Shown piece after piece: positions 23,094 to 61,632 of a stretch of DNA of 64,000 nt (positions within the stretch are counted from its first letter, which is position 1; each line of letters starts with the position of its first letter). Below the pieces are notes generated by a model. It was not told where the DNA came from, searched no databases, and saw nothing but the letters and a program-made list of their open reading frames with translations. Origin of the DNA: a virus (lineage: Duplodnaviria; Caudoviricetes); IMG/VR virus record IMGVR_UViG_3300031992_000007, positions 201,481 to 265,480 of that record, one strand, 5' to 3'. Both the position numbers and the translations under genes were made by a program.

Positions 23094-26000
23094 TTACCCA
23101 ATAGTAATCAGCGGGGAGAGCCTATGTTTATTCCATATGAGGTTCTCAGCCATGCCAATAGGGTACTGTTTGTGTGAATACCCTATAGAACTCATAGTTC
23201 CATTACTAGGAACCTTCTGAGTGTCAGCAGGAGTCTGGGCACTGTTGTAAGACCATATTTCACCTCCGGCGGAGCGGAGCCACCAGTACTGGGCAGCAGT
23301 CGTCGAATCGCTGTACCCATTCGCCAGATGCTGCCCAAGAGTGAGAGAATACTTGATGCGACTGTCATTCAAACTCGTGGCTCCGAACACCGCGAAGTTC
23401 TTATTGCACATCGCCCATTTCTTCAACCCGTACTTGTGGCCTTCCTGGTAGGGAATACCGTACCTGTTCTCATCGGCAACACCGAAGGTAATCCAACGAC
23501 CGTTCGCTTCACCCGACCATTCCTCGTAAACTCCGTTGTTGGCGGCGACGCCGCCAACAATCTGATTCGTCGACATGAGCCAGACCTTATCCACGCTCAC
23601 GGTGCCACCGAGGTTGCCCTCTTTCACACCGGCACGAGGATAGAAGTCGAATGCACCAGTCGTACCGTACAGACCGTTGCGGTTGACTACAGGAACGATC
23701 GCGTTGAGGAAGTCATACGCATCTTGGAGATCCGTCTTGTAGTTCGGGTTGACTTCATAGAGTCCGCACGCGTAAGGTTTGTTGGTACCGATATTGGTAA
23801 CCTCCTCATACCTACCATAGAGATTCCTCTTGAAGTACGTCTTCCCTTCTACAGGAGACATATCTGCAGAACGCTTGTACTGACAATCAATGAACCCGTG
23901 GAGGAAGGACTGTCTGGGTGTACGCTGACGGGTGGTAACTGTGACTCCAGTCGTGGTTCCGGATTTTGTACCCTCGACCAGCACTATTCCACTCGCCCAT
24001 CCCTGATTAGTATCAGCGATGTTCGTTTCGTTAGTGTAGGGCGATTTGTTCTTGATCGCTCCAGTAAGCATGTACGTGCTATTCCCAGCAACACCTTTGT
24101 CAATGTAGACCATCTTGTACATTTCAGCAAGCTGATCGTACTTGAGTCCGTTGTTGACAGAAGGCTGTTCCGTCCACCACTGATCACCCTCGGTGAAGAC
24201 AGGCACCCAGTTCCCGTTTTCATACTTGTACTGCATGACTGGAGATGCGCCGTAATTCCAGTATTTGCTAGGCTGGTTGAGATCCAGCTTCACACCTACA
24301 GGAACACCACCATCGATCTTCGTGTAGACAGGCTGTTTGCCGTTGTGAGCAATACTCCAGTCCTTGATGCTTGTGTTCTTCAGCCAGTGGTTGGAGTCAA
24401 CAGCACCAGATGTAGACGTTTCTGTGAGCCTGACATACCCACCAGAGACGAACTTGTAGTAGACTCTGGAAGTTACGAAGTTGACATCAGCAGTTTCGAC
24501 GTACTCCTTGGATGTATCGAAAGGTCCGTTGAGGTAGCAGCGGACATTCGACTGACACCAAACGTGGTTACCATAGGCAACACGTTCCAGGTTGGGAGTC
24601 TTGTTGAACAACCAGACGCGGAAGTTTCCATTGACGTTCTGGATCGGACCTTCGAAGACATCCGTAGTACGGAAGCAGAAGTTGGATCCCGAACCAGCAC
24701 TGCTAGCGGCACTCTTGGAAGGGCTATATGTGCTCCCAGAAGCCCAGCTCGGGGTAGCTCCGAATATGTCCTTAGTGATAGGAATGTACTCGCCACTAGC
24801 GTCGAGCGCACCCATCGTCCAGACATAGTCATTAGCTGTTTTCTTCTTGGCAACGAAGTATCCCTGACCAGCACGAATAGGAACCAGATCACCGACAGAA
24901 TACGTACCCGCGTAGGTAGCCGACTGAGCCGAAGTGATGGTAACGGATGTTGCAGAGGTGAAGTCCATCTTGATCCACGACGGAGTGTAGTAGCCGCTGA
25001 CGGAAGCATTGTGAGCTACACGTACACGACGATACACGTAGGGATCAGAATAGTCACCAACTGTGGTCTCATTAGAACCGCCACCAAGACGTTCATAGTA
25101 GAAGACACCAGGTTCGGACTTCTGACTTGATCCGCACGCCACCCATGTTGCCAGCCAGTACACTTTACCAGCGACGAACGTCTCATCCTGCGTAGGCATT
25201 TTGAGAAGAGGTTCGAGCGTCGGGTCAGCACCGCACACCTTGGAGAGGTTCATGTTCGGCGTTGTGGATATGCTGTAGTCCCCATCAACGTACTGTTGAC
25301 ACTTAGCCTTGACTTCGGCAGTCGCGTTCCGGTTGCCGAATATGCACGCGTAGATGTTGCGCAGATCGTCAGAGCAGTCGCGCATGTACACACGATACTC
25401 CGTGACGTAGTTCGTCTGCTTACTTGCAGCCGCATCTACTACATGCTTGCTGATAAGGGTTTCAGCAGGAACGAAGTACTTGATCAAGGAACTGTAGCTG
25501 GTACCAAAGATCAGGTCTTTCGTATCCTTTACCTTCCGAACTGGCATGAAGTAATCAGCCAGATGATTCGCACGAGGAGTGCAGGAACCGAGGTTCATCG
25601 TACCATCATCGATACAGTTCGCTCCCTTTCCAGTCCTCCGACAACCCGCACCCCAGGCATCCGTAACAGCTTCCAACGCCTCTGGGTTGTACATGCCGTT
25701 CTTTCCGGTGGGGTTAGTCTTGGAGTAGTACTTGTTTGAACCAGTGGATGCTGAATACAGTGCCTGTATGGCGCAGACCTTAGATGCAGACTCATACACC
25801 GTACCAGATACTGCATCACCAACGACTACAGTTTTCACTGTACCAGTATCGTTGGAGTAGTAGGTCTTGTTGGGCTGATACACAACATCCTTAGTGACGA
25901 TGAAGTCGGCAGAACCCGTAGACCTACGAAGGTCGGAGCATATCACATTGCCACCATACTGAATAGAAGTTCCGCCGGGGACAACACGAGTCGCTTCCAC

Positions 26001-27332
26001 GAACGGATTACGATACACAGTAGTGTACGGGAGTTCGCACTCACAAGGTGCGTTGGTAACAGACCACTTACCCCACGTCAGGCTAGCCACACCGTACGTT
26101 TCGGAACTTGCCGAGCCGTACTCATCATTTTCCCGATTAGCATCGAATACTGTCTCGACGTAATGGTTGTAGGCCTGTTCCTGTGCGTACACTTCTTTGT
26201 GGGGAGTCGTAGCTGTATACTCTGTGGTATTCAGCTTTATACAAGCGAAATAGACTCGGTTCAAATCACGAACGCTATCCCGAGTTGCAGCTCCTGCCCT
26301 CTCGTTGGTATCAAATACGTAACCAACGCCGTAGTGATCCCACCAGGAGTAGAGGTACTTAGACTGAAGAGTCATCGTGAACTTGACCTTCGAGTCATAA
26401 GGCTCGACGTTATCGAAGTCAACAACTTCGAAAGCCATGTCACCATAGTCGCCGTGATACGGGAGAGTGAGGATGGTTCCTATAGGGAAGTAGTCTTCCG
26501 CGATACCATTCTGCACCAGTTCCTTGATACCAGCCCAGTTGAGCAGGCAGTTCTGGTACGCGTAGTACGGAACACCCTTCTTGAACTCACGGAAACCAGC
26601 GTCGCCGATGGTCCAGTTGTCGGTGTTGTTCGGATCAACCAGTTCGTATTTGTACAAACCAGTTTCCGTATCCAGCATTCTGAAGTAGTAGTCACGATAG
26701 ACTGGCTGACCTTCAGTGTCCAGAGTGTACGGATGAGCATCACTCGTGATGATGTAGTTAAAACCAGCAACACGACCGTTCTGATCGTCGTTGGTAATAG
26801 CATCATCGTCAGAGTACGGGAAGAGTTTGAAGTAGTGCTTTCTCGCACTGTTGTCCTGGAGTGTCATGCTGAATGAACCAAATGCAGCATAAGCATTCCT
26901 GGACTCGTTCGTGCAGAGAACAGTACCGTCGTTCACAGTCAGAGGCATGTGACCAACCTGATGGACGAGAACAGTCTTCTTCCAGTGGGTGATTTCAGAG
27001 CCGACGATAACATCATCGGGGTCCTCCCAGGCCATGATGACTCGGAGCTGAGTACCATCGTCGTACATGCTGATACGAATGTTCTTGCAGTTACCCACAG
27101 AGAACCGACCAACATGCAGATCCATCCAGTAATAAAGACCAGTTTCGGAGTCCTGAGCGCACTTGTAGAAGTGTGACTTGACGTAGCCGTCCTGGGAACC
27201 ATCGAGCAGGTAAACTATGCCGAAGTTTTCAGCAGAAGCAGTAGGCAACTGCATGGTCACACGAGGCATGTTCTCCAGATCGAACTCAGTTGGAATCCAC
27301 TCGTGATTCCGGATCGTATCCAATTGTTTCAT
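23094..27332 (-). CDS. 1412-aa tail fibre / receptor-binding protein with a DUF6273/CLec-like C-terminus; target of the cassette arrays
   Basis: FN3-like N-terminal domain, WCQSNVRCYLN, DKVWLMS and YWWLRS motifs; tip region identical to cassette 42218-42377. Confidence 0.85.
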   Translation of the reverse strand: MKQLDTIRNHEWIPTEFDLENMPRVTMQLPTASAENFGIVYLLDGSQDGYVKSHFYKCAQDSETGLYYWMDLHVGRFSVGNCKNIRISMYDDGTQLRVIMAWEDPDDVIVGSEITHWKKTVLVHQVGHMPLTVNDGTVLCTNESRNAYAAFGSFSMTLQDNSARKHYFKLFPYSDDDAITNDDQNGRVAGFNYIITSDAHPYTLDTEGQPVYRDYYFRMLDTETGLYKYELVDPNNTDNWTIGDAGFREFKKGVPYYAYQNCLLNWAGIKELVQNGIAEDYFPIGTILTLPYHGDYGDMAFEVVDFDNVEPYDSKVKFTMTLQSKYLYSWWDHYGVGYVFDTNERAGAATRDSVRDLNRVYFACIKLNTTEYTATTPHKEVYAQEQAYNHYVETVFDANRENDEYGSASSETYGVASLTWGKWSVTNAPCECELPYTTVYRNPFVEATRVVPGGTSIQYGGNVICSDLRRSTGSADFIVTKDVVYQPNKTYYSNDTGTVKTVVVGDAVSGTVYESASKVCAIQALYSASTGSNKYYSKTNPTGKNGMYNPEALEAVTDAWGAGCRRTGKGANCIDDGTMNLGSCTPRANHLADYFMPVRKVKDTKDLIFGTSYSSLIKYFVPAETLISKHVVDAAASKQTNYVTEYRVYMRDCSDDLRNIYACIFGNRNATAEVKAKCQQYVDGDYSISTTPNMNLSKVCGADPTLEPLLKMPTQDETFVAGKVYWLATWVACGSSQKSEPGVFYYERLGGGSNETTVGDYSDPYVYRRVRVAHNASVSGYYTPSWIKMDFTSATSVTITSAQSATYAGTYSVGDLVPIRAGQGYFVAKKKTANDYVWTMGALDASGEYIPITKDIFGATPSWASGSTYSPSKSAASSAGSGSNFCFRTTDVFEGPIQNVNGNFRVWLFNKTPNLERVAYGNHVWCQSNVRCYLNGPFDTSKEYVETADVNFVTSRVYYKFVSGGYVRLTETSTSGAVDSNHWLKNTSIKDWSIAHNGKQPVYTKIDGGVPVGVKLDLNQPSKYWNYGASPVMQYKYENGNWVPVFTEGDQWWTEQPSVNNGLKYDQLAEMYKMVYIDKGVAGNSTYMLTGAIKNKSPYTNETNIADTNQGWASGIVLVEGTKSGTTTGVTVTTRQRTPRQSFLHGFIDCQYKRSADMSPVEGKTYFKRNLYGRYEEVTNIGTNKPYACGLYEVNPNYKTDLQDAYDFLNAIVPVVNRNGLYGTTGAFDFYPRAGVKEGNLGGTVSVDKVWLMSTNQIVGGVAANNGVYEEWSGEANGRWITFGVADENRYGIPYQEGHKYGLKKWAMCNKNFAVFGATSLNDSRIKYSLTLGQHLANGYSDSTTAAQYWWLRSAGGEIWSYNSAQTPADTQKVPSNGTMSSIGYSHKQYPIGMAENLIWNKHRLSPLITIG
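23115..23274 (-). repeat. Expressed variable region: exact 160-bp inverted copy of 42218-42377
   Basis: Base-by-base comparison gives 160/160 identity, from CTCCGCCGGAGGTG to AGGCTCTCC. Confidence 0.97.
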
Positions 27333-27439
27333 TTGACGTCCTTCACTTTTTAAGTTAGGGGATTAAACAAGCATAACATAGAGCTAAGTTGGTTCCATTT
27401 TATGTAAACTTTTATTAAAGGAAAAGGAGCAATCCGCTT

Positions 27440-28408
27440 ATGATCCGACAAATGTACGACCCGTTTAATTCGGTCATGTACGGGTTCGATGACTCCATCA
27501 TCTCCATGATGGTTAGTCAGGCCTGTTACACAAAAGCTGAAGTCGACAGCAAGATCTCCTCTGTATTCAAGATCTGTGGTGAGAAAGCCACTGTTTCTGA
27601 ACTACCTGCCACAGGCTCCATCGGCGATGTGTGGATAATCACTGAGACGCATGACGAATACACCTGGGTAAAAGCTGGCAGGTGGGAACAACTCGGACCA
27701 CTTATCGATACCTCTGCTTTCGCCACTGTTGCTTGGGTTAAGGAATACCTTGGACAGCTTCCTTCTCAATACAACTCCTTTGCAGAATACTTAACAGCTC
27801 TTGCTCAAGGTATTACGTCTGCCAACAACAAAGCCCAGACAGCATTGGATAAAGCCAACGCGGCTGTTACCAACGAGAATTTCGAATCGTTCAAGTCTCA
27901 GAACACTCAGGCTATCAATAATGCCAAGAAGGCTGGAACTGATGCGCAAGCAACAGCTAACACTGCCAAGTCTACAGCGGATGCTGCACTGCCCAAGACT
28001 GAATTCGAAACCTTCAAATCCTCTAACACAACTGCTATCAACGCGGCCAAGAAGAGTGGTGATGATGCAGCTGCTGCTGTCAATAGCTTCAAGGAAGCTC
28101 AGTTAGTCTTCGAGACAACCGTCGCTTCTATAGAGAAACTCGATGGTAGTGTCAAGGTTGTTACTCAGGATGCTGTCTTCAGCAGAAGGAAAACTTACTA
28201 TAAGCTTGTTGAGGAAGAATATGTTCCCCTCGTGCTTGGTACAGACTACCTTCCTACTTTGGCAGTTGCTGACTTCGAAGGAACTGTGTACGAAGATCGT
28301 GGTGTTAGTGTGAACGAGCTGATCGGTAAGATCAATGAACTCGTTGATGCTGGCAACATGCTTATTGCGGCTCACAAACAAGAGGCTGCTGCCAACGAAG
28401 GCGAATAA
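27440..28408 (+). CDS. Fibre-associated protein with Ala-rich coiled-coil repeats
   Basis: Tandem FESFKSQNTQAINNAKKAG / FETFKSSNTTAINAAKKSG repeats; WEQLG motif; TQDAVFSRRKTYY module. Confidence 0.7.
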   Translation: MIRQMYDPFNSVMYGFDDSIISMMVSQACYTKAEVDSKISSVFKICGEKATVSELPATGSIGDVWIITETHDEYTWVKAGRWEQLGPLIDTSAFATVAWVKEYLGQLPSQYNSFAEYLTALAQGITSANNKAQTALDKANAAVTNENFESFKSQNTQAINNAKKAGTDAQATANTAKSTADAALPKTEFETFKSSNTTAINAAKKSGDDAAAAVNSFKEAQLVFETTVASIEKLDGSVKVVTQDAVFSRRKTYYKLVEEEYVPLVLGTDYLPTLAVADFEGTVYEDRGVSVNELIGKINELVDAGNMLIAAHKQEAAANEGE

Positions 28409-28469
28409 ACAAGAGGGTGGGTGTTCGCCACCCACCCTCTAACGTCATTAAAAATTAAAGGAGTTTCTC

Positions 28470-31400
28470 ATGGCACTTGAATTCATGAAGATCCCTGGAC
28501 TCCAGAAGATCCTCACGTCTCTGGACTTTAAGTCCTACCTTATCGGTGTGGACAAACTTCCAGACTATCGAGATGCTAGCTTCTGCACCTACTCCATCAC
28601 GGAGGATGCTGAGGCTAGGTCGGGCAAGATCTATTACAATCGTGTTCCTCAGGCTAAGGGTGGTTACTCGTACGACCCTTGCTCTCATACCAAGCTGAAC
28701 GTCGTTGACCACCTCATGGCTGCGAAGCCCTATGAGATCTGCAAGATCAAACCAGATGCTTTTCTGGTCATTGGTAAGGATGGAGCAGGCGATGGGGCAA
28801 GTACTCTCTTCCACTACTGCACCTTCGATAACAGTGGCAAGCTTGAGACTGTCAGTCTTGATTCGATCGTTATCAGCAATGATAAATACCTGTACTATTA
28901 CAGGGATGTCGAATCCAAGTCTCTCAAGCCCCTTACGTTCATTCAGACCAGTTCTGGTTTGATGATTCGTGCTCGTAGGAACTTCTACGGTAGACCTACA
29001 AGTGGCACGGTTGAACCTGGTGGACTTCCATCTCCTGCAGGTAATACATACTGGTATCTCAATGGTGATAAGTGGACTGCAATACCTAGCTCCACTGTTG
29101 GTTCAGTTGCTACCTACGAAGAGACCAACAACAGGGTTGTCTACCTTCGTGTCAAGACAGATGAAATCAACACACTCAATGCTCTCACTCTCTACAACTG
29201 CGGGTGGTACCTTGGTCACGTTAACAGCGAGACGATCTACAATGTTGACTTGAAGATGGGTGCTCTTACTGAGTACAACATCTCTGCTGGATCTCCCATG
29301 GCTGAAAGAGCTCTCAGCTACACCAACGACACTGTCTTCGTCCGTGATAAGGTCTACTACATCAAGAAGACTGACCTTGTTCTCGACAAGGTTACAGTCC
29401 ACAACACTTCCAGCGAACTGGACGTTTCTATCTACAACGTCAACTGGCTGTTCAGCAACTTCGTAGTGTTGTCCAAGTCTGATCCTGAAATTGGTTATGG
29501 TGGTTATGCTTCAGTAGCTGCATGGAAAGCTGATCATCCTGACTACGAGCTCTACGAAGAGACAACCAACTTCTGGATCCAGCCTGATGGGTTCGTTGGA
29601 ACTCTCACTCGTAACCACGACTGGTACGAGCGTGTAGGTGATCGTTTCCCGTACGCTGGATTTGTGGCTATCGCTACTTCCAAGTACAACGGTCAGCAGA
29701 TCGGTGGTTTCTACCACGCCAAGATGAAGGAGTACCAGCTCACTGAGGATACTGTCCATCACTTCAGGTGGTTGGATGAAGATCACACCCAGGCTGAGTC
29801 CAAGACGTACTACGAGTGGAATGATGCCACTAACGTCTACACTCCCAGGGATGGTAGTCCTGGCAATCTGATCTACCGCGCGGTCGATGGAACAGACTAC
29901 TTCCAGAAACCCATGACTTCTGTGTTCGAGGAAGGCGAAACCTACTACACGTACAGCAGCGGTTCTGGTTACACTGAACTCACTGGTTGGACTCCTGTGG
30001 ATCCTATTCCTGGCAATGTCTTCATTGACAACAGACCGTTCTACTACAGGAACGGTTGGACGATCACTGAAGTTGAGACCAGGTATGGTGTGACTACAGA
30101 CACGACAGTTGTTGCTGGTAAGCAGTACTTCATCTCCACTGGCACCAACTCCTTCAGTCAGATCGGTGTTAGGGAAGACGGTTCCGACTTCTTCACTACC
30201 ACCAACGATGATGTATTCAAGGAAGGTAAGCAGTATTACTACTGCGACAGAGACAATGCCAGTAAGACAGGTCTGCAGAAGTTCACCGCTTTCGATTCCT
30301 CTGCGTACATCGGTAAGTCTATCAACTCTCAGTCGAGGACTATCTACGAACGCAACAAGGATGGTGGCATTCCTACTGAGGTCCAGATCTGTGTCAAGTT
30401 CGACAAGTATGATGGAAGATTCGATGGCATAACCATCCCGAACGATGTTGATGTCGTTGTCGAGTCTTTGAATGGTGAACCTATTCTCCAGGATGCTTAT
30501 TACGAAGCCTGCAAGGGCATGTATGTCTGGGAGCAGTACTTCATCGAACGTGGCACTTCGGTTACCAAGCCCTACAATGTTCAGGCTGTTTACATCGACA
30601 GTGAGTCTAAGGTCACTCTGAACCTGATGTGGACCGATCCTAAGTTCATGCTCCACAAAGACGACCCGACTATGGCTCCTGATGCGTGGGCTAAGACGGA
30701 CGTCGACCTGGAGTACGAGAAGGATGAGAACGGAGCGAAAGTCAAACGAGTCATCCGTCTCGTGTCTGAGGTTGCTACCAACGACGTGTATGCGGACAAC
30801 TTCTTTACTGTAGATGGTGATTCTGCTATCACTTTCGATGGTGCTACCATTAGCAGGAGTGAGTTCTCTACTGCTGTCAAGACTGGTGTTATCAGGATAA
30901 CTGCAACCGCTGTGACTGGTATTACCTCTGAGTATGTAGTTCGTCCTAGCAAGGTTGTGTGGGTCAACTCCACGAAGGGGTTCGTATCCCTTCTTGGTGG
31001 TACGGCTGTTACTGGAGTTCGCTACTACACGATCAACTCCGACGGTAACGAAACCGAACTCGCTGATGTTGTTCCCTATGTGACGGATGTAAGCTCTGAC
31101 AAGATCTACATCAAGTACCAGAAGGAGATCGAGACTTACGTTGATGACGACAATGGCGTCAAACGTATGATCATCATCGGTGACAGTGCTCACAAGGACG
31201 GAACTATCGTGCCAGAGAACGTTGGACTCTTCACTCGTGTTACCGAGAACCCTGAAATAACAGTCAGGGAGATCGTTCGTGCTGGTCTGTTCGACAAACT
31301 CTTCGCTTCTGCTAGTGGTGGGTATAACCTAACTGGCGCTCTGCTTGGACAGGTTCCTCTTACAACAGCTGTAGGTAGCAACCCCGATCTAGCCAATGTA

Positions 31401-33182: not shown

Positions 33183-33196
33183 GAGATCAATACTGG

Positions 33197-33225
33197 CCCT
33201 CTCTACCCTTCGTGGGTAGAGAGGG
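33197..33225 (+). terminator. Intrinsic terminator after the 1570-aa gene
   Basis: CCCTCTCTACCC-TTCGT-GGGTAGAGAGGG followed by a T-rich tract. Confidence 0.8.
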
Positions 33226-33247
33226 TTGGTTGCTTTTATTTTTTAGG

Positions 33248-33789
33248 AGGTGTAGGATCTATAAGCAAGATGGCGTTGTGGTTAGTCTTAGGATTTCAGC
33301 ACAACACAATGATAAACAATCAAGATTTTTCGTGGTGGAACAACACTAGATTCAGTCATCTTGCAAACTCAGAACAGATAAGGCTCTCCTGGAGGTGACT
33401 ATATTGGTCCAGAATCAGATAAATTTGAAAACCACCGGAATGCAAATTGTCAACACAAATCTTCAGGACTAGCACAGGGTGTAGAAGTTAATGGATCGAA
33501 TACAAATAAGCTAGCATGGCTCTCCAATGAGGTGGAAACTTCTTAATTGAAATAGGCAAAGGTGGAGGTTGGATACGTGGTGCAACAGACGGCTGGGGAC
33601 TAATGCCACAAATGGAACGCAACACTGAATCCAATGGAACTAAAAGACACGAAAGGCTCTCCAGGTGGATTCGGTATTCTGTCAGCAACTCCTTGGTATG
33701 TCTACGCAGGTGGGAATGAAAATTTTAATGGCGCAGTGGTATCATCATTGATTTCCATTAATATAAACTATTTCCCCAAAGGGCTCTCC
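33248..33789 (+). repeat. Cassette array A: 4 fibre-tip cassettes
   Basis: AGGTG at 33248, 33393, 33530, 33663; GGCTCTCC at 33382, 33518, 33655, 33782; GGT-to-TCC lengths 141, 132, 132, 126 nt, all open. Confidence 0.92.
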
Positions 33790-33820
33790 TCCACTAACTC
33801 CCAAAAAAAAATAAAAGAGC

Positions 33821-33848
33821 CACCAGGGTCCCCGCGGGGACCCTGGTG
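33821..33848 (-). terminator. Terminator hairpin bounding array A
   Basis: CACCAGGGTCCC-CGCG-GGGACCCTGGTG preceded by an A-tract on +. Confidence 0.8.
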
Positions 33849-33865
33849 CTCCAACCCTTTAGTAT

Positions 33866-34009
33866 CTACTTCTTCTTTTCCGGATCCTTGTCCTTCGGAC
33901 CACGGAAACTTTCCACAGCAACTCCGATGCCCAGTATAACTGCACCCGATAGTACAACGAACCCGATGCTCAACCCGAATATCCCCAGTATAACCTTGAG
34001 TGTTTCCAT
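33866..34009 (-). CDS. Small membrane protein (47 aa, METLKVILGIFGLSIG...KDPEKKK)
   Basis: Manual translation; hydrophobic stretch with a basic tail; start overlaps the upstream stop codon. Confidence 0.6.
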   Translation of the reverse strand: METLKVILGIFGLSIGFVVLSGAVILGIGVAVESFRGPKDKDPEKKK

Positions 34010-34738: not shown

Positions 34739-34854
34739 TGGTTTAACTCCTTTCAGATGATGAGTTTAACATTGTAGTAATTTATAAATGAAAAATGTAG
34801 CAGACCTCAGGCCCTCTTGCGAGGACCCGAGGATCTAGGAGCTTCCCATTTAAA

Positions 34855-36688: not shown

Positions 36689-36707
36689 CTCAGTAAGTCT
36701 TTCGTAG

Positions 36708-41536: not shown

Positions 41537-42377
41537 AGGTGAAGGATGTAATGTCATGACGTATAAGTGGGATGGGAGTCCGACGATACATCCCTACGAG
41601 AACGGTTTACCAAATGCCGCTGCTGTTCGCAAAGAACTAAAATGGCTCTCCAGTTAGAGAGGTGGAATAGAACAACAAGGAAAACATAGACAGGAAGTAA
41701 ATTGTGTTGCTGGTGCGTGGTGGAACTATGGAGGACTTGATTCATATATGAATCAACCACCATGTGGATTGATCGTACACCCTAGGCTCTCCATCAGGAG
41801 GTGGGTTTCTACAAGTGCAGAAACTAACAGAGACGTATGTAAACGTAATAGCTGGCGGACCTCCTGGAACAGCGGGGTATGCACAAGGCATCTATCCGTT
41901 ATTTGACGCATCGGGTTACAATAGGCTAGGAAGGCTCTCCTGAGGTGAGACTGTAAAAGATGCCAGCAAAGAAAACACTTATTACGTTTGTGAACTATGG
42001 AGGATAGATGATTTAGGTCAACCACAAGCACCTGAAGCATATGGACGAGATTGGGCATCTGGTTCAACTATCCTCACCAGGCTCTCCAGGGAGGTGAATA
42101 CAGAAACGCTGCGAATGGAGAAATACAATGGCACTATGTCCCAACTCTCCTTAAGTGGATAAAGACGGATGGAGATTATTGGAAGTACAGTAACAATATG
42201 TCCTACACGGAATGGCTCTCCGCCGGAGGTGAAATATGGTCTTACAACAGTGCCCAGACTCCTGCTGACACTCAGAAGGTTCCTAGTAATGGAACTATGA
42301 GTTCTATAGGGTATTCACACAAACAGTACCCTATTGGCATGGCTGAGAACCTCATATGGAATAAACATAGGCTCTCC
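41537..42377 (+). repeat. Cassette array B: 6 fibre-tip cassettes; the last matches the expressed tip
   Basis: AGGTG at 41537, 41660, 41799, 41943, 42092, 42227; GGCTCTCC at 41644, 41785, 41933, 42080, 42214, 42370; lengths 114, 132, 141, 144, 129, 150 nt, all open. Confidence 0.95.
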
Positions 42378-42391
42378 GAACAAAAAAAGAA

Positions 42392-42409
42392 AGGACCCGC
42401 AAGGGTCCT
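42392..42409 (-). terminator. Terminator hairpin bounding array B
   Basis: AGGACCC-GCAA-GGGTCCT preceded by an A-tract on +. Confidence 0.7.
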
Positions 42410-42435
42410 CCCTCGGGAGAAGCGAAAGCTTCTCC

Positions 42436-44624: not shown

Positions 44625-45904
44625 AGGTGGAATGGGGGCCAAGATAGTGAACGACAGTGGATACGGACCAAGTCATAATTACAATCCATCACCGTGTGAG
44701 TTGTTTTACGATTGGTATTCTGGTTATTACTTTACAGATAAATTAAGGCTCTCCGTGTTGGAGGTGGCGCAGACGAATCACAGGCTTGTTGGTTATGGCG
44801 GGTGTTCGGAAACAATATGGATGAGATTGTACAACCAGGGCTTGCTTCAACATCCACAAGGTTCGAGAAATCAATATCCTACAAAGCTGTAAATAGGCTC
44901 TCCAGAGAGGTGAGACTTCTCAATCCGATATTCGCCAACAACTGTGGGGAACAAACTGCCTTTACGTAATGGGGTACGATAGTAACTATGGAAGAATAGA
45001 GGGATACTACTGGGCACCACGTATTGAATCAGAGCGGGTTAAATATAGGCTCTCCTTTATCAGGAGGTGGAATACAAAATCAATGGAAGGTAGATTACAA
45101 AGAAGAATGCTCTCAAACGTGGTTGATTTGGGCAAATGGAAATTGGTCTAGTGGTGATCCTGGGAATCATGGTAGACAACCGATGGATAATGTAGTAAGG
45201 CTCTCCGCCGGAGGTATACCTAAAATCTCTGAAGAAAAACATGCTCAGTGGATGTTGACAGTGTGGGGCATTAATGGTATAGTTAGAGATAACTGGAGTG
45301 GGTCTAACAATGGCTCTGGGTACCCTAGTCGTAATGAAGATAGGCTCTCCAGTTTGGTATATAGGTGTATACAACCATCATTCGCAAATCTATTACATAT
45401 TTACAGATATTACGACTCCGTACAGAAATTCTGGAGATGTGTATTATGCTGATGAAATTGGATGGCCCTTAGCTACTAGACAAAATAGGCTCTCCAGGTG
45501 AAGCTACGCATCCAAGTGCTATGAACTCAGCATTTGGTTCCACTGGTGGATATGTAAATTCTAACTACACAATATCAGCTGCTACGTTTGAGCAAATATC
45601 GAACTGGCCAAATGATCCTCTATACGTAAGAGATCATAGGCTCTCCGAGGTGAGCGTAGTGGAGGTCAAGTAGCTGGCAACATCGGTCTTACTCTAACAT
45701 CAGGATTTAGTGCATGGGATAAAACATGGAATATCGATATCGTATCGCGACAATATGGGCTCTCCAAAAGGTGATGGAACTAGGATTCATTACTTTCTTG
45801 AAAGTGTTTGGGTAGCCCAGCCATGTCAAGGTCAATTCGACCAAGGCCTGAGATCCGAAGGAAACAACACATATCCAGCTAATGAAAAATACCACTGGCT
45901 CTCC
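44625..45904 (+). repeat. Cassette array C: 9 fibre-tip cassettes
   Basis: GGCTCTCC at 44747, 44896, 45048, 45199, 45343, 45488, 45639, 45758, 45897; each unit starts AGGTG (one AGGTA); lengths 129, 141, 147, 141, 138, 132, 150, 117, 135 nt, all open. Confidence 0.95.
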
Positions 45905-45922
45905 AAAACAAAAAAATAAACC

Positions 45923-45948
45923 CCTACCCCACCGTGAGGCGGGGTAGG
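45923..45948 (-). terminator. Terminator hairpin bounding array C
   Basis: CCTACCCC...GTGA...GGGGTAGG preceded by an A-tract on +. Confidence 0.75.
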
Positions 45949-50458: not shown

Positions 50459-50469
50459 GTTGGTTCTCC

Positions 50470-52465: not shown

Positions 52466-52525
52466 TTCCTTTCGGATATAAAAGAAAGAGGTAGAGTCAT
52501 AAGACTCTACCTCCTCTGTAGTTTA

Positions 52526-53755
52526 CTATTCGTGTGTCAGGCGCCAGTCGATGGCGCGTTTGAGATACTCGACGTACTCGGCGTCTTTGCACATTCCCTT
52601 GCCTTCAACATCAGAGAGTTTGGCAACCGGCGATCCGTTGCACTCCGTGACTTTCATCACGATGTTGAGTGCATCGGGAAGTGGGTTGGACCAGAACGTT
52701 CCGATACCGAATGCGACCTTGCACTGATCTTCGAAGTGTTTCTTGATCTCGTGTGCTTTCTCCAAGTTCAAGCTGTCGCTGAACAAGAGAGTTTTGGTCT
52801 TAGGATCGATACCAAGGCTCTTATAGTGAGCGATGATCTTTTTACCCCACTTGAATGGGTCGCCAGAGTCATGACGAACGCCACTGAAGAGAGTTGCATA
52901 GGTCAGGTTGAAATCCCGAAGGAAGGCATTGGTCCCAATAGTGTCGGTGAGAGCAATGCCATTCAGGATCCCGTACTCCTTAACCCAAGCATCCAGTGCG
53001 TACCAGTTGGAGTAAGCAGGGTTGTGTTTGTGGTTACCCTGTCCAACACACATGATGAACTCGTGGGCTTGAGTGCCGACGGCTTTGAGGTCGTACTTGT
53101 GAGCCAGGTATACGTTGGAGGTACCCACGAACCCAGGAAGTTGACCCTCTTGTTTTGCGAACAGCAGTGCGCTGATCAAATAATCCTGCATTGCTCTCGA
53201 ATACCTACGGCGCATTCCGAATTCGGAGAATGTTCCGATGTCGAATACTTTATTCTTGCCAGATATCTGCAAGATGTGTTTCTCCGTAAGATTCTTGAAC
53301 TCTTCGTTCTTCATGCCAGGACCGTACTTGAACGCGAAGTACACTTCATTGACGATAGCCAAGATGGCGATCTCGTACATGGAAGTGTTGAGCCAAGTTC
53401 CACAGGCCTCTATACAGAGACCGCAGTCGTTGTAATCATTGCCAGTTGCGCAGACGATGATCTCCTCACGACGAGGATGCCAATACCTCAGGAAGTCAAG
53501 GTAGTCCTTGTGTATCCACGGAAGATTGACCCCTAGCCACGTCAACTCAACTTCGGTGAACCTGAGGGTGCAGTAGTGTTTGATCTGTTCCCTGATCTCC
53601 TGAACCATCTCCTCGGTGAACTTGACGTTCGGATTTCTACAACGGAACGACCAGCGAGTGGTGTAGTTGTTGAATTGGTGGAAGATGCACTGACCCATGC
53701 TGAACTTGTAAGCATCGGTCTCTAGAAGTGATTTGACGATAGGTTCTAACTGCAT
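52526..53755 (-). CDS. pncB: Nicotinate phosphoribosyltransferase
   Basis: LETDAYKFSM, SEFGMRRR, GTSNV, GTQAHE, LTDT, GVRHDSGDP, FGIGT, KLSD motifs. Confidence 0.92.
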   Translation of the reverse strand: MQLEPIVKSLLETDAYKFSMGQCIFHQFNNYTTRWSFRCRNPNVKFTEEMVQEIREQIKHYCTLRFTEVELTWLGVNLPWIHKDYLDFLRYWHPRREEIIVCATGNDYNDCGLCIEACGTWLNTSMYEIAILAIVNEVYFAFKYGPGMKNEEFKNLTEKHILQISGKNKVFDIGTFSEFGMRRRYSRAMQDYLISALLFAKQEGQLPGFVGTSNVYLAHKYDLKAVGTQAHEFIMCVGQGNHKHNPAYSNWYALDAWVKEYGILNGIALTDTIGTNAFLRDFNLTYATLFSGVRHDSGDPFKWGKKIIAHYKSLGIDPKTKTLLFSDSLNLEKAHEIKKHFEDQCKVAFGIGTFWSNPLPDALNIVMKVTECNGSPVAKLSDVEGKGMCKDAEYVEYLKRAIDWRLTHE

Positions 53756-53787
53756 GATTTAATCCTTTCTGTACTTGATGGTGATAA

Positions 53788-56700
53788 CTACTTTTTGATC
53801 CACTCGTCACGTGTTTCTGAGATCAGTTGAGCAATGTCAACGGCCAGCTTCTTGTACGTCTGGTTCTCAAAACACATTCCGAGGAATTGAGCCTGCTTGG
53901 AATAAGCAGTTAGTGCTGCAATTACACAGGCTCTTTCATCTGTACTGTCGGTATCGAGACGAAGTACAAAATACTTTCCACGCTTTACCTTGCCGGTCTT
54001 AGCGTCGAGTATCGTGTACTTGTTATAAAGACCTTCTGGTTTGGACTTAGGTTTGGGCATTTGGGTTACCATTCCTTTCTTGGGTCGGTGAAACCAGGTG
54101 CGGGTTTCCAGCCAGGTGGGAACAGATCGAACTTCTTCTTAGGTGGCGTCCAAGGTTTGGCTAAGGAAGCTGGAGCTTGCCGGTCAGGAGTCTGTATACC
54201 ATCCTTGAGAAGTTTAGCTTCGACGTCCTTCCTGAGCAGGAGAATAACTCTGGGGAGAGGTCCCCACGGAGTCGGTACGTCGTCACCGAAAGCAACTGAC
54301 GTGTACTCCGCTTTGGGACCATTTCCTTCGCTGTGTTCGATGCTGTGGGTAGGCCACAGTGTCTCGAACGGCGTTCTGGAGATATCGATAACGGGTCTGG
54401 GCTGCTGATCAGGATCATAGCCCAGCTCCTTAATCATATCCATCAGTTCAGCAGGCGAGTTGAACTTGTAGGGATTACCGTCACTCACCGGATACCTCCC
54501 TCAACTCGGGCAGGCGAGATAATTGTCCCACCTTTGTGTGTTGTGTGGCCGTGCCAGTGTTCCATAGCAGCACCGATGCGACGCTGTTCAGCCATCTTGC
54601 GTTCGTTGGTCTCGCAGGCGTTCCACCCAACGTTGAAACCAATAACGAAGAAGACTATTGCAGCGACAATGACAGCGATGATCAGACAGATGGTGAGTGT
54701 GCTCATGATTGAACTCCTTCCTCAGGAATGGTTGCAGCTGTGCTATGATTCAGAATGGCATACATAGGCAGACCAATTTGACCGAACTCAGCTATCAATG
54801 TGTCAGTGTCATGTTGGATTTTAGCCCGAGTTAGCTGGGACACGAATCTGACGAAACTGAGTTTATGACGAAGTCTCCGCAAATATGCAGCACGACCAGA
54901 TAGATCGGCATACGTCTTGAGAGAACAGCCAGTACTCTCAACCAATCCACAGAGCGCCGGGTTGCAAATTTCATTGACGATACGTCCTTCATCAGATAAG
55001 TCGTATTCCACTTCTTCTACCACCGACGGATGATGAAACTCTAGATCGATCAAATACTTCATAGTAGTGAACGAACCGTTTTCATCCTGGTCCCACGGAA
55101 TAGTAGGAAGCTGGGTGTCGATAATCCCAACCCTGACTACATAAATGGGATGCGATTCGCGTCCGAATTTATGAACAGTAACACCATAACGTGCGTCTTT
55201 GGCACCCGGTATTCCGCCAGTTACGAAATGCAAAGTCCATTCGTAGGACGCACCGGTTTTCTCGACACGTTTTATCAGATCTCCAAACCTGAGACGACAT
55301 ATTCGCTCGATGGTTGGAGATGTAGATGTTCCACACACGAATCCGAACGAGAACAAGTGCTTTGCAATATCAAAACACCTGTCGAGCGTGCTGAGCTCCT
55401 GATTTATGTCCCGGACGATACCGAGACATTTCTCAGATGTAAGCTTGTTAATCCCTTCTTGACCAATTTCTTGTTTGGTTTCGCGTTCTATCGTTCCCAT
55501 TAGATTTATAATGTCATTCATGGTTGAGCTCCTTTCGTTATTGACTCCTGACTGTACTCCGATAACGTCTTAAGAGCAACGTCGTTGATGGTGTAGCTCA
55601 AGTAGTTGGCGATTTCGCGGTAGACGACACCGAACTTTATGATCGTGTCTTCTAACCTCTTATCGTGCTCAGACAGTTTCAGGCCGAGGTTAACCAACCC
55701 GTACTGACCAGGCTTAACATCTTCGAGACTACTGAACACCTGCGCAGGATCCTTCTCGAATTCACTTTCGCTAAGGTAGGTCTTGATGTGGTCAAGTTTC
55801 CCATCGGAGCCAGCCACCTTCGTGTCGTACTCAATGTAGTAGCTCCTGGGAGCCTTGGGATTGATATCATGATCGACGGTTGTTTCTGAAACCTGGATGT
55901 TGAAGATGTTCACCTCATGGAAGAGCTCGTAGTTCTCCAGATGAGTGATCGTAAGAACCCTGTCGTTCATTCCACCTTCTTTGATGCTCAGGGTGATGCC
56001 GAACTGTCCGTGGAGTTTGAAGTCGCGGATAGTGTCGATCAGCATTCCCATCCTGGTCATCTCAACTTTGGCGTCCTCAACGAACTTCTTCATGTTGCGG
56101 ACGAAGGTGGAACAGATCTTCTCCATGCATTGAACTCTGGTCGTCTCGATGTTGCGAAGTAGATCGCGGGTCTCGACGATGAACGGGTCGTTAAACGGGC
56201 TAGACATTTGTAGCTCCTTTCGATTGATGTGTTATACGTTCAATGAATTCCTTCTGTTCGTCCGTAAACTCGCAGATAGAAGCGATAGATGGAAATGCAT
56301 ATCTGAGGAAGCTAGCAGCTACGGAGTTGCCGTAGTTTATCCCTCTCAGGAGCAGATCCACCCAGAACTTTCTGTGAGCTAAGGTTCCGGATTTTGGAGA
56401 CCACTGACCAGGATCGTCTGTGAACTCGTCCGGAGTTATGAGCACGTCGCGGCGGCACAGGCCGTTATTTACGACTACCATGTAGTCTTTGACGGTATTG
56501 CCACGGTAGTGGTCCACGTACTGAGTGATTGAGCAACCACCTCTTGGTGCACCATCCACGGCAAAACTCATCCTTCTACGAGACCAGCAAGATGGTTTCT
56601 TGCGCGTGAACCCGGATAGAAGGCCAGGCTCAGAATAAGTCACAAGATCCTGTAGCTTAGGCGACTCGAACATGAGACGGAAGAACTTTAGAAGCTCCTC

Positions 56701-59700
56701 CCTGAACTTGACCTCGGACTTGTAGAAGCGAACGCGGTCCCTGAAGGTGACGCGTTTAGTCTTCTTTTCCTGCTGTTCCTGTTGCATCGGTAACCTCCGG
56801 CAGTTGTCGTGTGGCGAAGATCTCTGTACCTACCCTCTCCATGGAAGTCCAGGTCTCCTTGTACTTGGGACGTATGACGACCCTAGTGTAGCCGTTGGAC
56901 CGGAGAAGCTTCTCAGTCTGAAGAAGCTCGTCTGTCGTGGCTGTTAGCGGACAGAACGAAGAGTACTCCCACTTGTAGAAGTTCTTCTCCAGAGGAGGGT
57001 CCATTGCCTTGTTAAACGAACTCATTCCGTAGATCACGAAGCCGATGATCACAGCTACTATGAGCGCAAGCATCGCGAATTCAAACCTGAACTCTTTCAT
57101 GTCATTCCTCCTTTGATGTGTAGTCAGGAGCATACTGCAGGTCTAGCCAAGGGAAACGATCCCTTATCTTGACGATTTCTTCAACCGTCAATGCATTGAC
57201 CTTGAGTGTGCTCACGACGTAATGCTCAGAATGTATAGGGAGCTGCTCGCCGTACAGCTTCTCTGCCAGATGGATTGCATCTATGATGGTGCACTCGTGT
57301 GAGAAGTAGTTTTTGCTATCCTCACCATCCGGATCACCCTCGTACCAATCATTCGAGCACAAAGTGTCAATAAGAGACTCGATATACACGATGAGTTCGA
57401 ATCCAAGCGAAGTTGCTGAAACAGGTCGTTCGTGCACGATGCTCGCGAACTTACGCAGACCCTCAACATCTTGATCTGTGAATGTTCTAGGTGTTGGTTT
57501 CATTAGGTCTCCTTTCCTTTACCTTCTACCCAGAATGGTAGCGGCTATGGTCCATAGACCAACGATCACACCAATGATGAGTAATGTTTTCATTGATCAT
57601 CCTCCTTCGACTTGGACTTTTCCTCAGGATAGTAGAATGCAGTCAGCAAACCATAAACGATCGCTGATGCAATACCTACGTTTAAGACTAATGCGAGTAT
57701 AGACTTGATGTCCAGATACTGAGCTAGTGCAATTCCCAGTATAACCGGGAAACAGTAAGTGAAGAAGAATATCGTGCGGCCTTTTGCAGCCCTAGTCATG
57801 ATGTGACCTCCTTAACTTTCTGTGAGTTGTTTGATATCCGTGACCAATCCAACAGACTCAACTGTCAGATAGTATTTCTGTCTGTTCCTGATGTCTCGGA
57901 AGAACTTGACCATCAAAGCTGTATTCACTTCCGAAGTTCTGAGATCCACAAGCTTGATGAACGTCTTCCTAGTCCTGCTTGTCCACAACGAACTGATGCG
58001 TTTGAACAAGTAGGCTGATGATTTGCTCATTGCCATGATCGGGTTCCCAGTCTTAGAGTACGTTGGTCTGAAACCATAGAACTCCAACTGCATTGCCAGA
58101 TCTTTGCTGATGTTCTTGCGATCTCTGATAGAAGAAGTTGTTGGGTACGATAGATGTATGAACATATATCACCTCCGCTTTGTTTTGGTGATTTTCATGA
58201 GGAACTCGATGATGTCCTTAACTACCAGACTTGCGATAGCCTGGCCAGACTTCATCAGTTCATTTTCGAGATAGATGGATCTCCTACGGAAGCTTGGAGT
58301 ACCTTCTATCTTAGGCAGCCGCCACTTTCGCAAGTTGCAGTAATAGCTGAAGCTGTTATTGAGTGACGTGATGAGTATACCTGGTAATTTGGTTCTATCA
58401 GAAGCAGGTCTTACGGTGATCACGTACGTATAGTCTGGGCTTTCCGTCTTGACGAAACGTGGTTCAGCCATCTTAAGTACAAAGTACTTCATATCTCCGA
58501 TGAGGAGCTGAATCTTCTGATGATCGAAATCTTTGTCCTTTTCAAGTTTACCGAGTTTCTCGCAGATATTGAGGATATCATCGAGATTCTCAATGAGCAT
58601 CTTCTCATTGCGTTTGAGAGCGTTCCTGAGCTTAACACTTTCTTTGAACGTAGGTAGAATCGAATCGTATTTGGGCATAATTAACCCTCCTTTTAAATCC
58701 CTATGAATTTACTTGGTCCCATCTCCTTGGTGGAGATGGGATCATCACACCGAAAGGAGTCTTTAGTATCAACATCCTGACAGTGGCAACTGTGTTGACG
58801 ACTGAACCTGATTGTTAGAAGAGAAACCACTATGACCACAACTAGGACCACAGCGGCTGACACAAGTAGAGGTATCATTTGGTCTCCGATCCCATTAGCC
58901 AGTTATTGTTTTCCAACAGCTTCAGGTTGTGAGGACCGATTACCAATAACCTATTCGTATCAAGAAGATAACTAGTAACCGATCTGTCCAACTCCTGGAT
59001 ATTGTTCAGAGAGTACTTCTTGTCTCTGGACAGCATATCGCTTAGATGGACTCGCTCAACATTAGCTTTGTCGTATAAGAACAGACCGCAGATATGCCGA
59101 GCGCCGAACGGTTCCGTGTCCAGCACGAAAGTGTAGAAGATAGAAGGAAAGTCCTTCTTGATCATCTCCTCTACATCACAAGCCGGAGCACAGTCGAACT
59201 TGTGCTGTTTACCTTTGTCGAACTGGATAGTCCCGTCGGTATCGAACCTCGTTCTTCCAATATTCATCGACAGAAGTCGGATGTATTCAAAGAACTCTTT
59301 CTTGCCATTGAAGTACTGAACGAACAGTCTGTCGCTAGGAGAGACTGGACTACCTTTACGCAACAGCAAAGGTTCTACACGAGAGATGGTGCACATGCCC
59401 ACTCTGAGGGGCTTTACTTCTTTGGTCGTCTCTTTGATGACTTCATCGAGCGGAGAATCCTTGATGATCTTGAGCAATGTTGAATCTTCGATGTTCTCTT
59501 TGAATGAAAAGAAGTCCATGGTTGGTTTCCTTTTGAGGTTTAGGTTTTAACGTACACTGCGTTTCTTTAGTAGTTCATCGAACTTTTTCAGAAACATTTT
59601 GTTGACTGCATCAGCGTCAGTCTGCAGATCAACGAGATAGTTTACTATCATCTCGTGGACCATGCAGATGTGCGTTAGATGTTGGTACAACTTAAGATTA

Positions 59701-61428
59701 TCGTCGATCAAGTATAGTCTGTACACACCACGATCTTTAAACTTCACACGTGAATAGTTGACTTGGCGTCGACCATCATACTTGTATTTGACTGGAAGGA
59801 ATTCCCTAATGCCAATACGTTCGAGCTTACCGTTGGGTGTGCGTACCAAGGAAGTGAATTGATACTGGGAATAAGCTCCGTAGTGAAATACTTCAAGACT
59901 CGGAATGTTCTTGATAGATTCGATAGATAACCATAACGGCTTTCCACCTTCTTCCCCAAGAATTCTCATATTGCTAGCCAGTATGAAGATCCGTTTAGCA
60001 ATATCCACCTGCATCTTGTACAGCTTGCGCAGGAGTTTATTCTGCGTCTTGAGTTCGTCTGTACTCGCTTGACCCATCATCAAGAAACTAGATTCCTGAT
60101 AAAGTTCCCTAAACTGACAGCAGCAAAGCAGCATGTTGATCGATCTCTGAACTTTGAGCTTTAGGTTTTTGGCATACTTTAAGTTAGTCATTTGCGTGCT
60201 CCTTGTTAAACACAGACTTTCTTAGAAAGAATTCCCACCAAGAGGCGTACACTCTGACAGTCTGGTTGCCAATGTAGTGACGCTTCTGTTCCGACTTAGG
60301 GAGTCTCCAGAAATCATCGTCGTACGGACCAGGTACACTGATCTCACGATAACGTTCTCCGAAGATATAAATTATTAGCAGAGGGACGAGGACTATCGCT
60401 AGTCCTATTAAAACACCGATGACGAGATCAACATTTATCATTTCGCATACCTCCTTTACAGATAGGTTATTTCTCCCATCTCTAGCTCAAGGATGTACTC
60501 CTTGAGCATGAGAATGTGAGTGTGTTTCTTGAGACACTCCATATGCTCTTTGAGGTACTTGGCGAACTCCAACGCTTTGTCCTTATCGTCCCAGTAGCAC
60601 ACTCTCGGGTCCATCGTGTTGGTGAACCTGTACTCAAGACCAGTGCGAACTTCTCCGAGTGGACTGGAGTTGTCGCACTCGGTCTTGGTGCACAGTAGGA
60701 ACGTGTAGAAACATGTTGCGTTCTTGTCACTAACTTCTATCTCAAGAGCAGGGGTGTATAGGGGAAGTCTGAGATGTTCCTTATCCAGGTGTTTGTGACC
60801 TGGAGCAAGTTGTGTCATCAGACGGACGTCAGGAACGACGATGTCTTTGATGTCCTCTTTTGCGCGGTCCAGACACTGTTGATCGAGTTCAATGCTCTTA
60901 GGTGTTTTCATCTTGTTTCTTCAGTATGTAGATTATAACGAGGAGGACAATGATGATAGCTACGTCACCACCAACGAACCACCAGAAGTACTGTTTAGGA
61001 AGTACCTGTGATGCTACAACTCCAATTGCAATGGGCAAGATGTATCGACAAGTGAACAATACGGGCTTCATTAGAAATTTCATTGTCGAACTCCTTTCTT
61101 AGGATTTAAGTGGTAGATCACTACTGTGTAGAACCTCAAGTGCTTCCAGAAGGTTTAATTCCGGGTCAGTATCCGGTCGATTCATCAATTCTCTTACCTT
61201 TCGCCACCGTTCATCACTTTCCCTCTGCATTGTCAGCAATTGCGTCTTATCGCAGAAACGACCGCGTATGTGATGATGAATTGGTGTCATTAGCAGAAAT
61301 TGATCATCGTACTTTTCAACAATAAAACCAGATGGTAGAGGGTGTCTACATTCAGGAAACCCAGCAGCAAGTTCTAAATTCATCCCTCTATATGGCTGAA
61401 GTTGATCAATGAGTTCTTCGACTTTCAT
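53788..61428 (-). other. Tightly packed run of ~19 small hypothetical ORFs, several single-TM (e.g. 54066-54488, 54703-55521, 55518-56207, 56200-56787, 57102-57503, 58169-58678, 58875-59519, 59547-60191, 60456-60911, 61099-61428)
   Basis: Co-oriented ORFs with overlapping start/stop codons and GGAG-type RBSs, downstream of an early-type motif at 61453; no recognisable families. Confidence 0.7.
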
Positions 61429-61487
61429 TGTAAAATGACTCCTTTCACTTAAGTAATTTATATCCCAACCGTGTATGAAAATATGTT

Positions 61488-61632
61488 AGGTGAGATGAAT
61501 CAACCTCGCGCTTATTCAAATTGTCAAACGGGTATACGTATTACTGATGCTGGTGACCGTAGTGGTGGGATGTACGTAGCAACTAAAGATCCATATCTGT
61601 CGAATAAATTTTACGGACCACACTGGCTCTCC
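61488..61632 (+). repeat. Solitary fibre-tip cassette D
   Basis: AGGTG at 61488, GGCTCTCC at 61625; 144 nt open: GEMNQPRAYS...KFYGPHWLS. Confidence 0.88.

Follow-up and report, generated by a model that had tools for sequence, protein, structure and literature searches.

Until now, stored libraries of alternative sequence segments had been known in the antigenic variation of bacteria and protozoa and in the antibody genes of birds. The receptor-binding proteins of phages are known to be retargeted by point mutation, by the mutagenesis of diversity-generating retroelements (DGRs), by DNA inversion among a few alternatives and by the exchange of modules between phages. Here we describe a tail-fibre-like gene that lies in the last 64 kb of the IMG/VR virus record IMGVR_UViG_3300031992_000007 (265,480 bp, rated complete); this stretch of 64,000 nucleotides is called the window throughout. 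We are fairly confident that the gene, together with 52 silent cassettes stored elsewhere in the same genome, makes up a system that diversifies the receptor-binding tip of a phage fibre from silent cassettes.

The closest described systems are bacterial. The vls cassettes of Borrelia are inverted with respect to vlsE and bordered by short direct repeats (17 bp); both vlsE and pilE/pilS of Neisseria use longer homologies than the locus described here, produce segmental mosaics and depend on host RuvAB or RecA. The repeats that flank tprK of Treponema pallidum are very short, and to our knowledge the enzymology of its conversion is not settled. The tprK gene changes by non-reciprocal segmental conversion, in which 53 silent donor cassettes serve one expression site (PMC10063172, PMC8480903).

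Among these systems, tprK is the closest in logic to the phage locus, with vlsE and pilE/pilS to be named alongside. Both tprK and the phage locus have a single expression site, about 50 promoterless donors, retention of the donor, and surface loops that are set between conserved segments of a scaffold. On the other hand, tprK has seven variable regions that become mosaics of donor parts, and its donors sit at one locus, whereas in the virus a single loop is replaced as a whole, the donors are dispersed in ten arrays and there is one invariant 8-mer. The vlsE and pilE/pilS systems share with the phage the copying of silent cassettes into an expressed gene, but the anchors found here measure only 8 and 4-9 bp, and the carrier is a lytic-type jumbo phage. 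Among the features by which silent-cassette conversion is recognised, a single expression site with many donors, non-reciprocal transfer and short conserved flanks are found here. Full-text searches of the literature turned up nothing of this kind for a phage or any other virus.

The positions of the expression site, the cassettes and the neighbouring genes are collected in Table 1. An earlier, sequence-only reading of the window had listed 20 intergenic units in four loci, and all of them are present as placed: each starts with AGGT(G), ends with GGCTCTCC, measures 114-150 nt, is a multiple of 3 and is free of stop codons (20/20). It had further stated that the fibre gene carries both anchors in the same frame and that its insert equals one cassette. 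Indeed, tip and silent donor are identical in 150/150 nt, and the identity runs 13 nt further upstream. The size of the library had to be revised: 20 is the number for the window, and the genome holds 52 silent cassettes in ten intergenic arrays (111-153 nt, always a multiple of 3). A scan of the whole genome found 53 GGCTCTCC sites, every one of them a cassette end (52 silent and one expressed). In the window alone there are 21 such sites against 1.9 expected, a count reached in 0 of 100 shuffles.

The cassettes are almost all mutually unrelated, with only two similar pairs in the genome, and Gly, Ser, Asn, Tyr and Trp are abundant in their peptides. Among the silent cassettes the invariant 5' core is AGGT only, with TGGT in its place in the unit at genome 11111-11245. 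Nearly all silent cassettes (50 of 52) are opposite to the gene in orientation; two minus-strand cassettes stand head-to-head with a plus-strand array. Most arrays are antisense to their neighbouring genes.

The frame that runs from GGT to TCC is open in 53/53 units, and each of the five other frames is open in 0-13 of them. Linker lengths are distributed at random modulo 3 (14/12/14), there are stops inside several of the in-frame linkers, and 19 of the 52 tabulated silent units are Met-free, with no consistent in-frame start codon. As these linkers, stops and Met-free units show, the reading frame is kept per cassette and does not depend on the array, just as had been proposed for units that lack their own starts.

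Table 1. Features of the cassette system and its surroundings (window coordinates, or coordinates of the complete record where marked "genome").
Feature	Position	Strand	Remarks
Tail-fibre-like gene, 1412 aa	23094..27332	-	Open reading frame; C-terminal ...YWWLRSAGG, variable loop, (R/W/G)LS-PLITIG*
Expressed cassette, 150 nt, 50 codons	23115..23264	-	100% identical to silent 42228-42377
5' anchor region TCC GCC GGA GGT G	23261..23273	-	GCCGGAGGT kept in relatives
3' anchor GGCTCTCC	23115..23122	-	Invariant at every expression site and cassette seen
Fixed tail PLITIG*	23094-23114	-	Tail codons vary synonymously among relatives
Retained donor of the expressed tip	42228..42377	+	Upstream linker GCCGGA equals the gene's own flank
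Silent array 1 (33249-33789), 4 cassettes	33249-33389, 33394-33525, 33531-33662, 33664-33789	+	Just past the terminator of a 1570-aa gene
Silent array 2 (41538-42377), 6 cassettes	41538-41651, 41661-41792, 41800-41940, 41944-42087, 42093-42221, 42228-42377	+	
Silent array 3 (44626-45904), first five of 9 cassettes	44626-44754, 44763-44903, 44909-45055, 45066-45206, 45213-45350	+	
Silent array 3, last four of 9 cassettes	45364-45495, 45497-45646, 45649-45765, 45770-45904	+	
Lone silent cassette	61489-61632	+	
Six more arrays outside the window, 32 silent cassettes	genome 1424-2268, 10854-11106 (-), 11111-11913, 56724-57695, 96973-97791, 136018-136719		
Avd-like gene, four-helix bundle (residues 15-135) and disordered Pro/Glu-rich tail	20341..21327	-	1.8 kb downstream of the fibre gene
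Two more DUF6273-type proteins, 583 and 435 aa	16903..19970	-	Same operon; Pfam DUF6273 E 8.6e-8

The arrays sit exactly between one terminator and the next gene. In the window, their ends abut an A-run and a GC hairpin (33790-33860, 42378-42430, 45905-45940 and 61633-61660), which together form the intrinsic terminator of the convergent gene on the minus strand, and relatives show this arrangement as well.

The exchange of tips can be followed in related genomes. The fibre family is small, with 9 representatives among 1.8 billion proteins. Its members, at 41-64% identity, all keep YWWLR(S/T)AGG and LSPLITIG*, and the 38-55 aa inserted between these motifs are unrelated; eight or more homologues share the two flanks and differ in the loop. 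In their DNA, GCCGGAGGT (or GCAGGAGGT) and GGCTCTCC are kept despite synonymous change in the adjacent codons; for example, the Leu, Arg and Ser codons before the 5' anchor are changed synonymously. The relatives were examined as stretches of up to 25 kb each, and those with silent arrays at the syntenic place show 1, 1, 3, 10 and 14 or more cassettes within these stretches. Homologous cassettes occupy different arrays in different genomes.

Within clusters formed at 90% identity, the last 600 residues of the fibre body are 98-100% identical and the tips are unrelated. For example, P0002 and P0036 are 99.8% identical over these 600 residues, P0005 and P0041 as well as P0034 and P0058 are 100% identical, and each of these pairs has unrelated tips. 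The P0008 cluster shows at least seven tips among ten full-length members, and P0004 and the fibre of L034 are 93% identical overall, again with unrelated tips.

Two contigs, L033 and L060, can be aligned colinearly over 24.7 kb at 99.6% identity; a single stretch (nt 14561-14708), bounded by GCCGGAGGT and AAGGCTCTCC, has been replaced. The L060 tip matches an inverted silent cassette at position 605, 9.4 kb upstream of the gene start, which is present in both L033 and L060. Expressed tip and silent copy match in 156/159 nt, and the three differences (from silent to expressed) are A to G, T to C and G to A. Because the donor is kept, the flanks are colinear and the change is bounded by the anchors, the transfer is duplicative, non-reciprocal and without inversion, that is, gene conversion; at the level of sequence comparison, a stored loop has been copied into the expression site of an otherwise colinear genome. 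The sequence-only reading had held that whole loops are copied from a stored library, and not changed by point mutagenesis or inversion, and that relatives should carry other tips between the same anchors. Both expectations are borne out by the near-identical fibres with unrelated tips and by the donor-retaining replacement in L033/L060, where the L060 tip matches a silent cassette of its own genome.

A bounded replacement of the tip is likewise seen in another pair, L032 and L061. In L061 a base of the flank has been co-converted (GCC to GTC, Ala to Val), which fits the flank type beside a silent cassette. Furthermore, one silent cassette of this pair (L032:4094-4225 and L061:4102-4225) differs by pS 0.54 and pN 0.20 (the proportions of synonymous and nonsynonymous differences) and by a 9-nt indel in genomes that are 98% identical, and therefore the silent slots themselves have been overwritten by diverged alleles. 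Contigs L037 and L039 start at the very point from which a k-mer takes in unique flank beyond the 3' anchor. Since assemblers break contigs at duplicated sequence, it follows that these samples contain the expressed cassette twice.

Not every expression site holds a single cassette. Those of P0006/L043 and P0045 contain two to three cassettes with array-type linkers and a correct last junction. In the three-cassette site of L043 (L043:15100-15640), the second cassette is followed by a stop and the third by the normal tail. Among P0006, P0045 and P0058, two cassettes are joined in frame, and one tip runs into a linker. In-frame duplications of 39 nt and 15 nt are found inside the expressed tips of L036 (3300-3490) and P0044, in strains that are otherwise identical; they may be real variation in loop length or assembly stutter.

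A metagenome scan for the gene-tail pattern found one contig, L062 (JGI Ga0265298_10027905). In its positions 1-600, a two-cassette array runs straight into the fibre tail PLITIG* and its 3' untranslated region. The array adjoins a homologue of the genome region 51-56.6 kb, and fragment P0031 has this cassette as its normal tip; L062 is thus either an assembly chimera or the result of an inversion of the genome through the duplicated cassette. In L059 (1-5700), a distant relative that carries P0007, the cassettes alternate in orientation, with tail-to-tail junctions of the form GGCTCTCC-N(5-15)-GGAGAGCC and head-to-head junctions of the form ACACTT-N-AAGTGT. In this lineage AAGTGT appears to serve as the 5' anchor, in agreement with the lineage's own gene (CGT AGT GTA). 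A perfect palindrome inside the tip at the end of the L059 scaffold is probably an assembly artefact.

Searches for more distant relatives gave little. An IMG/VR scan for the anchor pattern returned 31 loci, mostly with a single match to the array pattern, and no related array; L018, with three pattern matches, was rejected as an array, as its sequence is a collagen-like repeat. No related locus was found in viral contigs searched with the fibre C-terminus.

Whether the silent units are maintained as coding sequence was judged from six homologous silent pairs, taken within the genome and against relatives. The ratio of nonsynonymous to synonymous change (dN/dS) is 0.13-0.46, and in the pooled pairs pS is 0.58 and pN 0.28 (Fisher P 1.5e-11), with the reservation, to be held against our interpretation, that the pairs were chosen by protein similarity and are thereby biased to low dN. 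Because pS is well above pN in these pairs, the silent units appear to be under protein-level selection, that is, maintained as coding loops though they are not expressible in place.

The 3' anchor is depleted in the rest of the genome. There are 0 copies of GGCTCTCC outside the cassettes, as compared to about 6 expected. Its core, GCTCTCC, occurs 3 times outside the arrays against 33 expected; of 7,891 7-mers it ranks second in avoidance, behind the overlapping CTCTCCT (15 against 61 expected). In relatives, GCTCTCC is found 4 times against about 20 expected. The depletion reflects avoidance either of the anchor core or of a host restriction site that coincides with it.

The two ends of the cassettes behave differently at the junctions. 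The 3' junction is invariant everywhere, whereas the 5' junctions vary and read AGG, VGG, AGE, AGV or AGA in the protein. Five array junctions read GGCTCTCC-GCCGGAGGT, and one in this genome adds GCTCC; one array junction of L042 includes CGCTCCGC. Such junctions are footprints of the gene's own upstream flank. The two junction forms of this genome can be explained by a return at the CTCC microhomology, with the expression site acting as donor for the array.

Because the 3' junctions are fixed and the 5' junctions variable, and because of the footprints, the multi-cassette sites and the avoidance of the anchor, we propose that copying would begin at the rigid 3' anchor, run toward the 5' end of the donor and rejoin the recipient through microhomology, at AGGT or some bases further on. 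The one expression site has a loop of 37-55 codons between (GCC)GGAGGT upstream and GGCTCTCC downstream, and the 52 promoterless, start-less alternative loops with the same anchors are its stored library. Such a transfer would be a matter of template switching or synthesis-dependent repair and not of site-specific strand exchange or reverse transcription, and the arrays would serve as recipients as well. More speculatively, an Avd-like protein encoded nearby, or an unrecognised factor that reads GGCTCTCC, might trigger or guide the event. Tip switching would change the receptor specificity of the phage, and the presumed pay-off is a rapid change of the host receptor that is recognised.

Several points weigh against the diversification system as we propose it. 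The Pfam inventory of the complete genome yields no enzyme or trigger for the copying, and the DNA enzymes it contains are all general (family B polymerase, ligase, RuvC-like, SMC/Rad50-like, DHH and RNase H). A homology of 4-9 nt is far below the range of ordinary RecA-type recombination, so that the proposal requires either a special mechanism, or very rare events combined with strong selection. Every sequence used comes from a metagenome assembly, and switching is judged from comparisons between samples. The L060 donor, with its 3/159 nt of difference, could be the allele of a co-infecting relative, and the odd forms (L062, P0058 and the end of the L059 contig) may be assembly chimeras across a duplicated cassette. 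Finally, the identity of the protein as a receptor-binding fibre is presumed from its context and from weak domain evidence.

As to the domain, a neighbouring gene matches a tail-fibre PHROG, and of 30 matches obtained with protein-language-model features of the tip domain 29 are DUF6273 clusters (score 0.95-0.96). The tip of one relative has a Pfam DUF6273 match under the cut-off (E 0.001). When the fibre C-terminal domain was aligned to the neighbouring DUF6273 proteins with hhalign, there was a match of 36 columns only, and a profile search of PDB sequences with this domain gave no match. The tip domain thus looks DUF6273-like by its language-model features and the one weak Pfam match, which lend indirect support to the CLec-like fold named in the sequence-only reading; the AlphaFold model, built from a 10-sequence alignment, is unusable for this purpose, with a predicted local distance difference test (pLDDT) score of 41.

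A link with DGRs is suggested by the neighbourhood of the fibre gene. The Avd-like protein matches the PHROG "Avd protein of DGR" (E 1.3e-7), its AlphaFold model has pLDDT >90 in the bundle, and the top Foldseek matches are 2gsc, 2rld, DGR Avd 4dwl and 8ube. This family is 43-82% conserved across the clade and encoded close downstream of the fibre gene in relatives, directly so in L033 and L060. The protein is a candidate accessory factor. Small open reading frames (ORFs) around the Avd-like gene have no PHROG match. The tips of the 583- and 435-aa DUF6273 proteins are conserved among relatives and are not cassette-swapped. In DGRs, the variable regions lie at the C-terminal end of DUF6273/CLec domains, and some phages keep DUF6273/CLec targets without the DGR (PMC10743442; bioRxiv 10.1101/2024.10.15.618418).

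Descent of the cassette system from a DGR locus is plausible. We advance tentatively, as something possible on which we would not insist, the further idea that a dedicated copying machine free of reverse transcriptase (RT) evolved from the DGR, with the Avd protein and the DUF6273-type target kept, templated copying out of a library of 52 pre-evolved loops in place of the mutagenic retro-step, and a start at the genome-excluded 8-bp signal GGCTCTCC. If true, this would be a new class of programmed, sequence-addressed viral DNA diversification, and the factor that reads the anchor would be a new kind of enzyme or guide.

A descendant of a DGR could also still work through RNA: the arrays would be transcribed, and an unrecognised or host RT would, together with the Avd-like protein, produce a non-mutagenic cDNA that homes into the tip. 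The Avd-fold protein is at the canonical spot downstream of the variable gene, the target looks DUF6273/CLec-like with its variable part at the C-terminal end, ahead of the last strand, as in DGR targets (PMC10743442; bioRxiv 10.1101/2024.10.15.618418), and the polarity with a rigid 3' and a flexible 5' boundary resembles DGR homing, so that in Avd and boundaries, and apparently in its target, the locus is like DGRs such as that of BPP-1 Mtd or those with the DUF6273 "tentaclin". However, we find neither an RT nor a template. RVT_1 has no match in the complete genome (the RVT_1 control genomes were matched), no RT appears in the Pfam inventory, and a six-frame motif scan gave no convincing ORF with RT motifs. 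Rfam and tRNA scans of the window had no match, no conserved template-flanking RNA element was seen beside the arrays, and there are no classical DGR repeats at 14-34 kb of the window; the sole repeat of the fibre tip is the 100% identical cassette and not an adenine-variant template repeat. Moreover, the adenines of the tip are copied faithfully over all 150 nt in this genome, and the three L060 differences follow no single base pattern. In place of the single template repeat and adenine mutagenesis of a DGR, the phage has 52 pre-stored, unrelated loops of differing length, and we regard the RNA-based route as unlikely. A DGR-like homing hairpin after the fibre stop codon was considered and rejected; the conserved sequence past the stop is a terminator followed by the next promoter region.

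Marginally less likely still is a shufflon or invertase, in which a recombinase swaps strands at the anchors and two successive inversions put a new cassette in the gene. Inversion switches (Mu Gin, P1 Cin, p15B Min, R64 Rci and Rin of gut prophages; PMC6109161) likewise keep silent alternative tips that are often inverted, as are 50 of the 52 silent cassettes here. The alternating cassettes of L059 have inverted-repeat junctions at both of their ends, and the joint between array and fibre tail in L062 is the product expected of a crossover between inverted sites. On the other hand, these switches change the host range by exchanging the whole C-terminal end with its stop codon, reciprocally, at sites of 19-30 bp and with a dedicated recombinase, whereas here an internal segment is overwritten by copying. 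Neither a tyrosine nor a serine recombinase was found (Phage_integrase and Resolvase have no match in the complete genome). The retained donor makes the transfer duplicative instead of reciprocal, and the 24.7-kb flanks show no inversion between L033 and L060. The position of the 5' junction varies, the sites of 8 and 4-9 bp are far shorter than sfx, gix and mix, and L062 can be explained by misassembly at the duplicated cassette.

It is quite improbable that no dedicated mechanism exists at all and that ordinary homologous recombination between co-infecting relatives accounts for the tips, with the arrays as passive archives or debris. The lack of an enzyme agrees with this explanation, and the silent cassette of L032/L061, so diverged within flanks that are 98% identical, implies an exchange of alleles between lineages. 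However, debris would not keep 52/52 units in frame and stop-free, nor a dN/dS below 0.5, and it would not hold an invariant 8-mer that is absent elsewhere in the genome and avoided in relatives; besides, the expressed tip equals the genome's own silent copy. That the units are independent small genes, or parts of a translated polyprotein, is very improbable, for although the 5' anchor is often GGAGGTG and so resembles a ribosome-binding site, many units are Met-free and without a consistent start, the linkers ignore the frame and often contain stops where they are in frame, and most arrays are antisense to their neighbours. Translational bypassing and trans-splicing were dropped, as the change lies in the DNA and the frames are kept per cassette, and so was acquisition of the integron or CRISPR kind, as an integrase or Cas-type gene is absent.

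If the fibre tip is indeed rewritten from silent cassettes, the finding adds a fourth programmed route to receptor retargeting in phages, namely a library, encoded in the genome, of about 50 complete loops that differ in length and sequence and are available for insertion at a single position of a scaffold. It would explain how near-identical genomes come to have radically different tips in an uncultured clade of gut and rumen phages of 240-265 kb, and it links DGR-type targets and Avd to a mechanism free of RT. It also poses an enzymological question: what reads an anchor of 8 bp and copies between homologies of 4-9 bp? The scaffold with its natural loop library is, furthermore, a ready-made display system for studies of how loops recognise receptors.

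The genome itself can be placed by its Pfam matches. All ORFs of at least 70 aa were searched, and the matches to phiKZ internal head proteins, RNA-polymerase subunits, a divergent family B polymerase, DnaB, NrdD and LpxR mark it as a phiKZ-like jumbo phage with an anaerobic, probably Gram-negative host. Judging by their sample names, related assemblies come from rumen and pig-gut studies. About 155 nt from the start of the record (1-155) recur at 265326-265480, with a G-run of 10 in one copy and 11 in the other, which indicates a circular or terminally redundant assembly, though the record is labelled linear. The sole HNH_3 endonuclease domain of the genome (177302-177430, minus strand) lies in an open frame of 283 aa, and the protein is probably a homing endonuclease. 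Genome positions 155643-166877 on the minus strand are taken up by one ORF of 3,744 aa.

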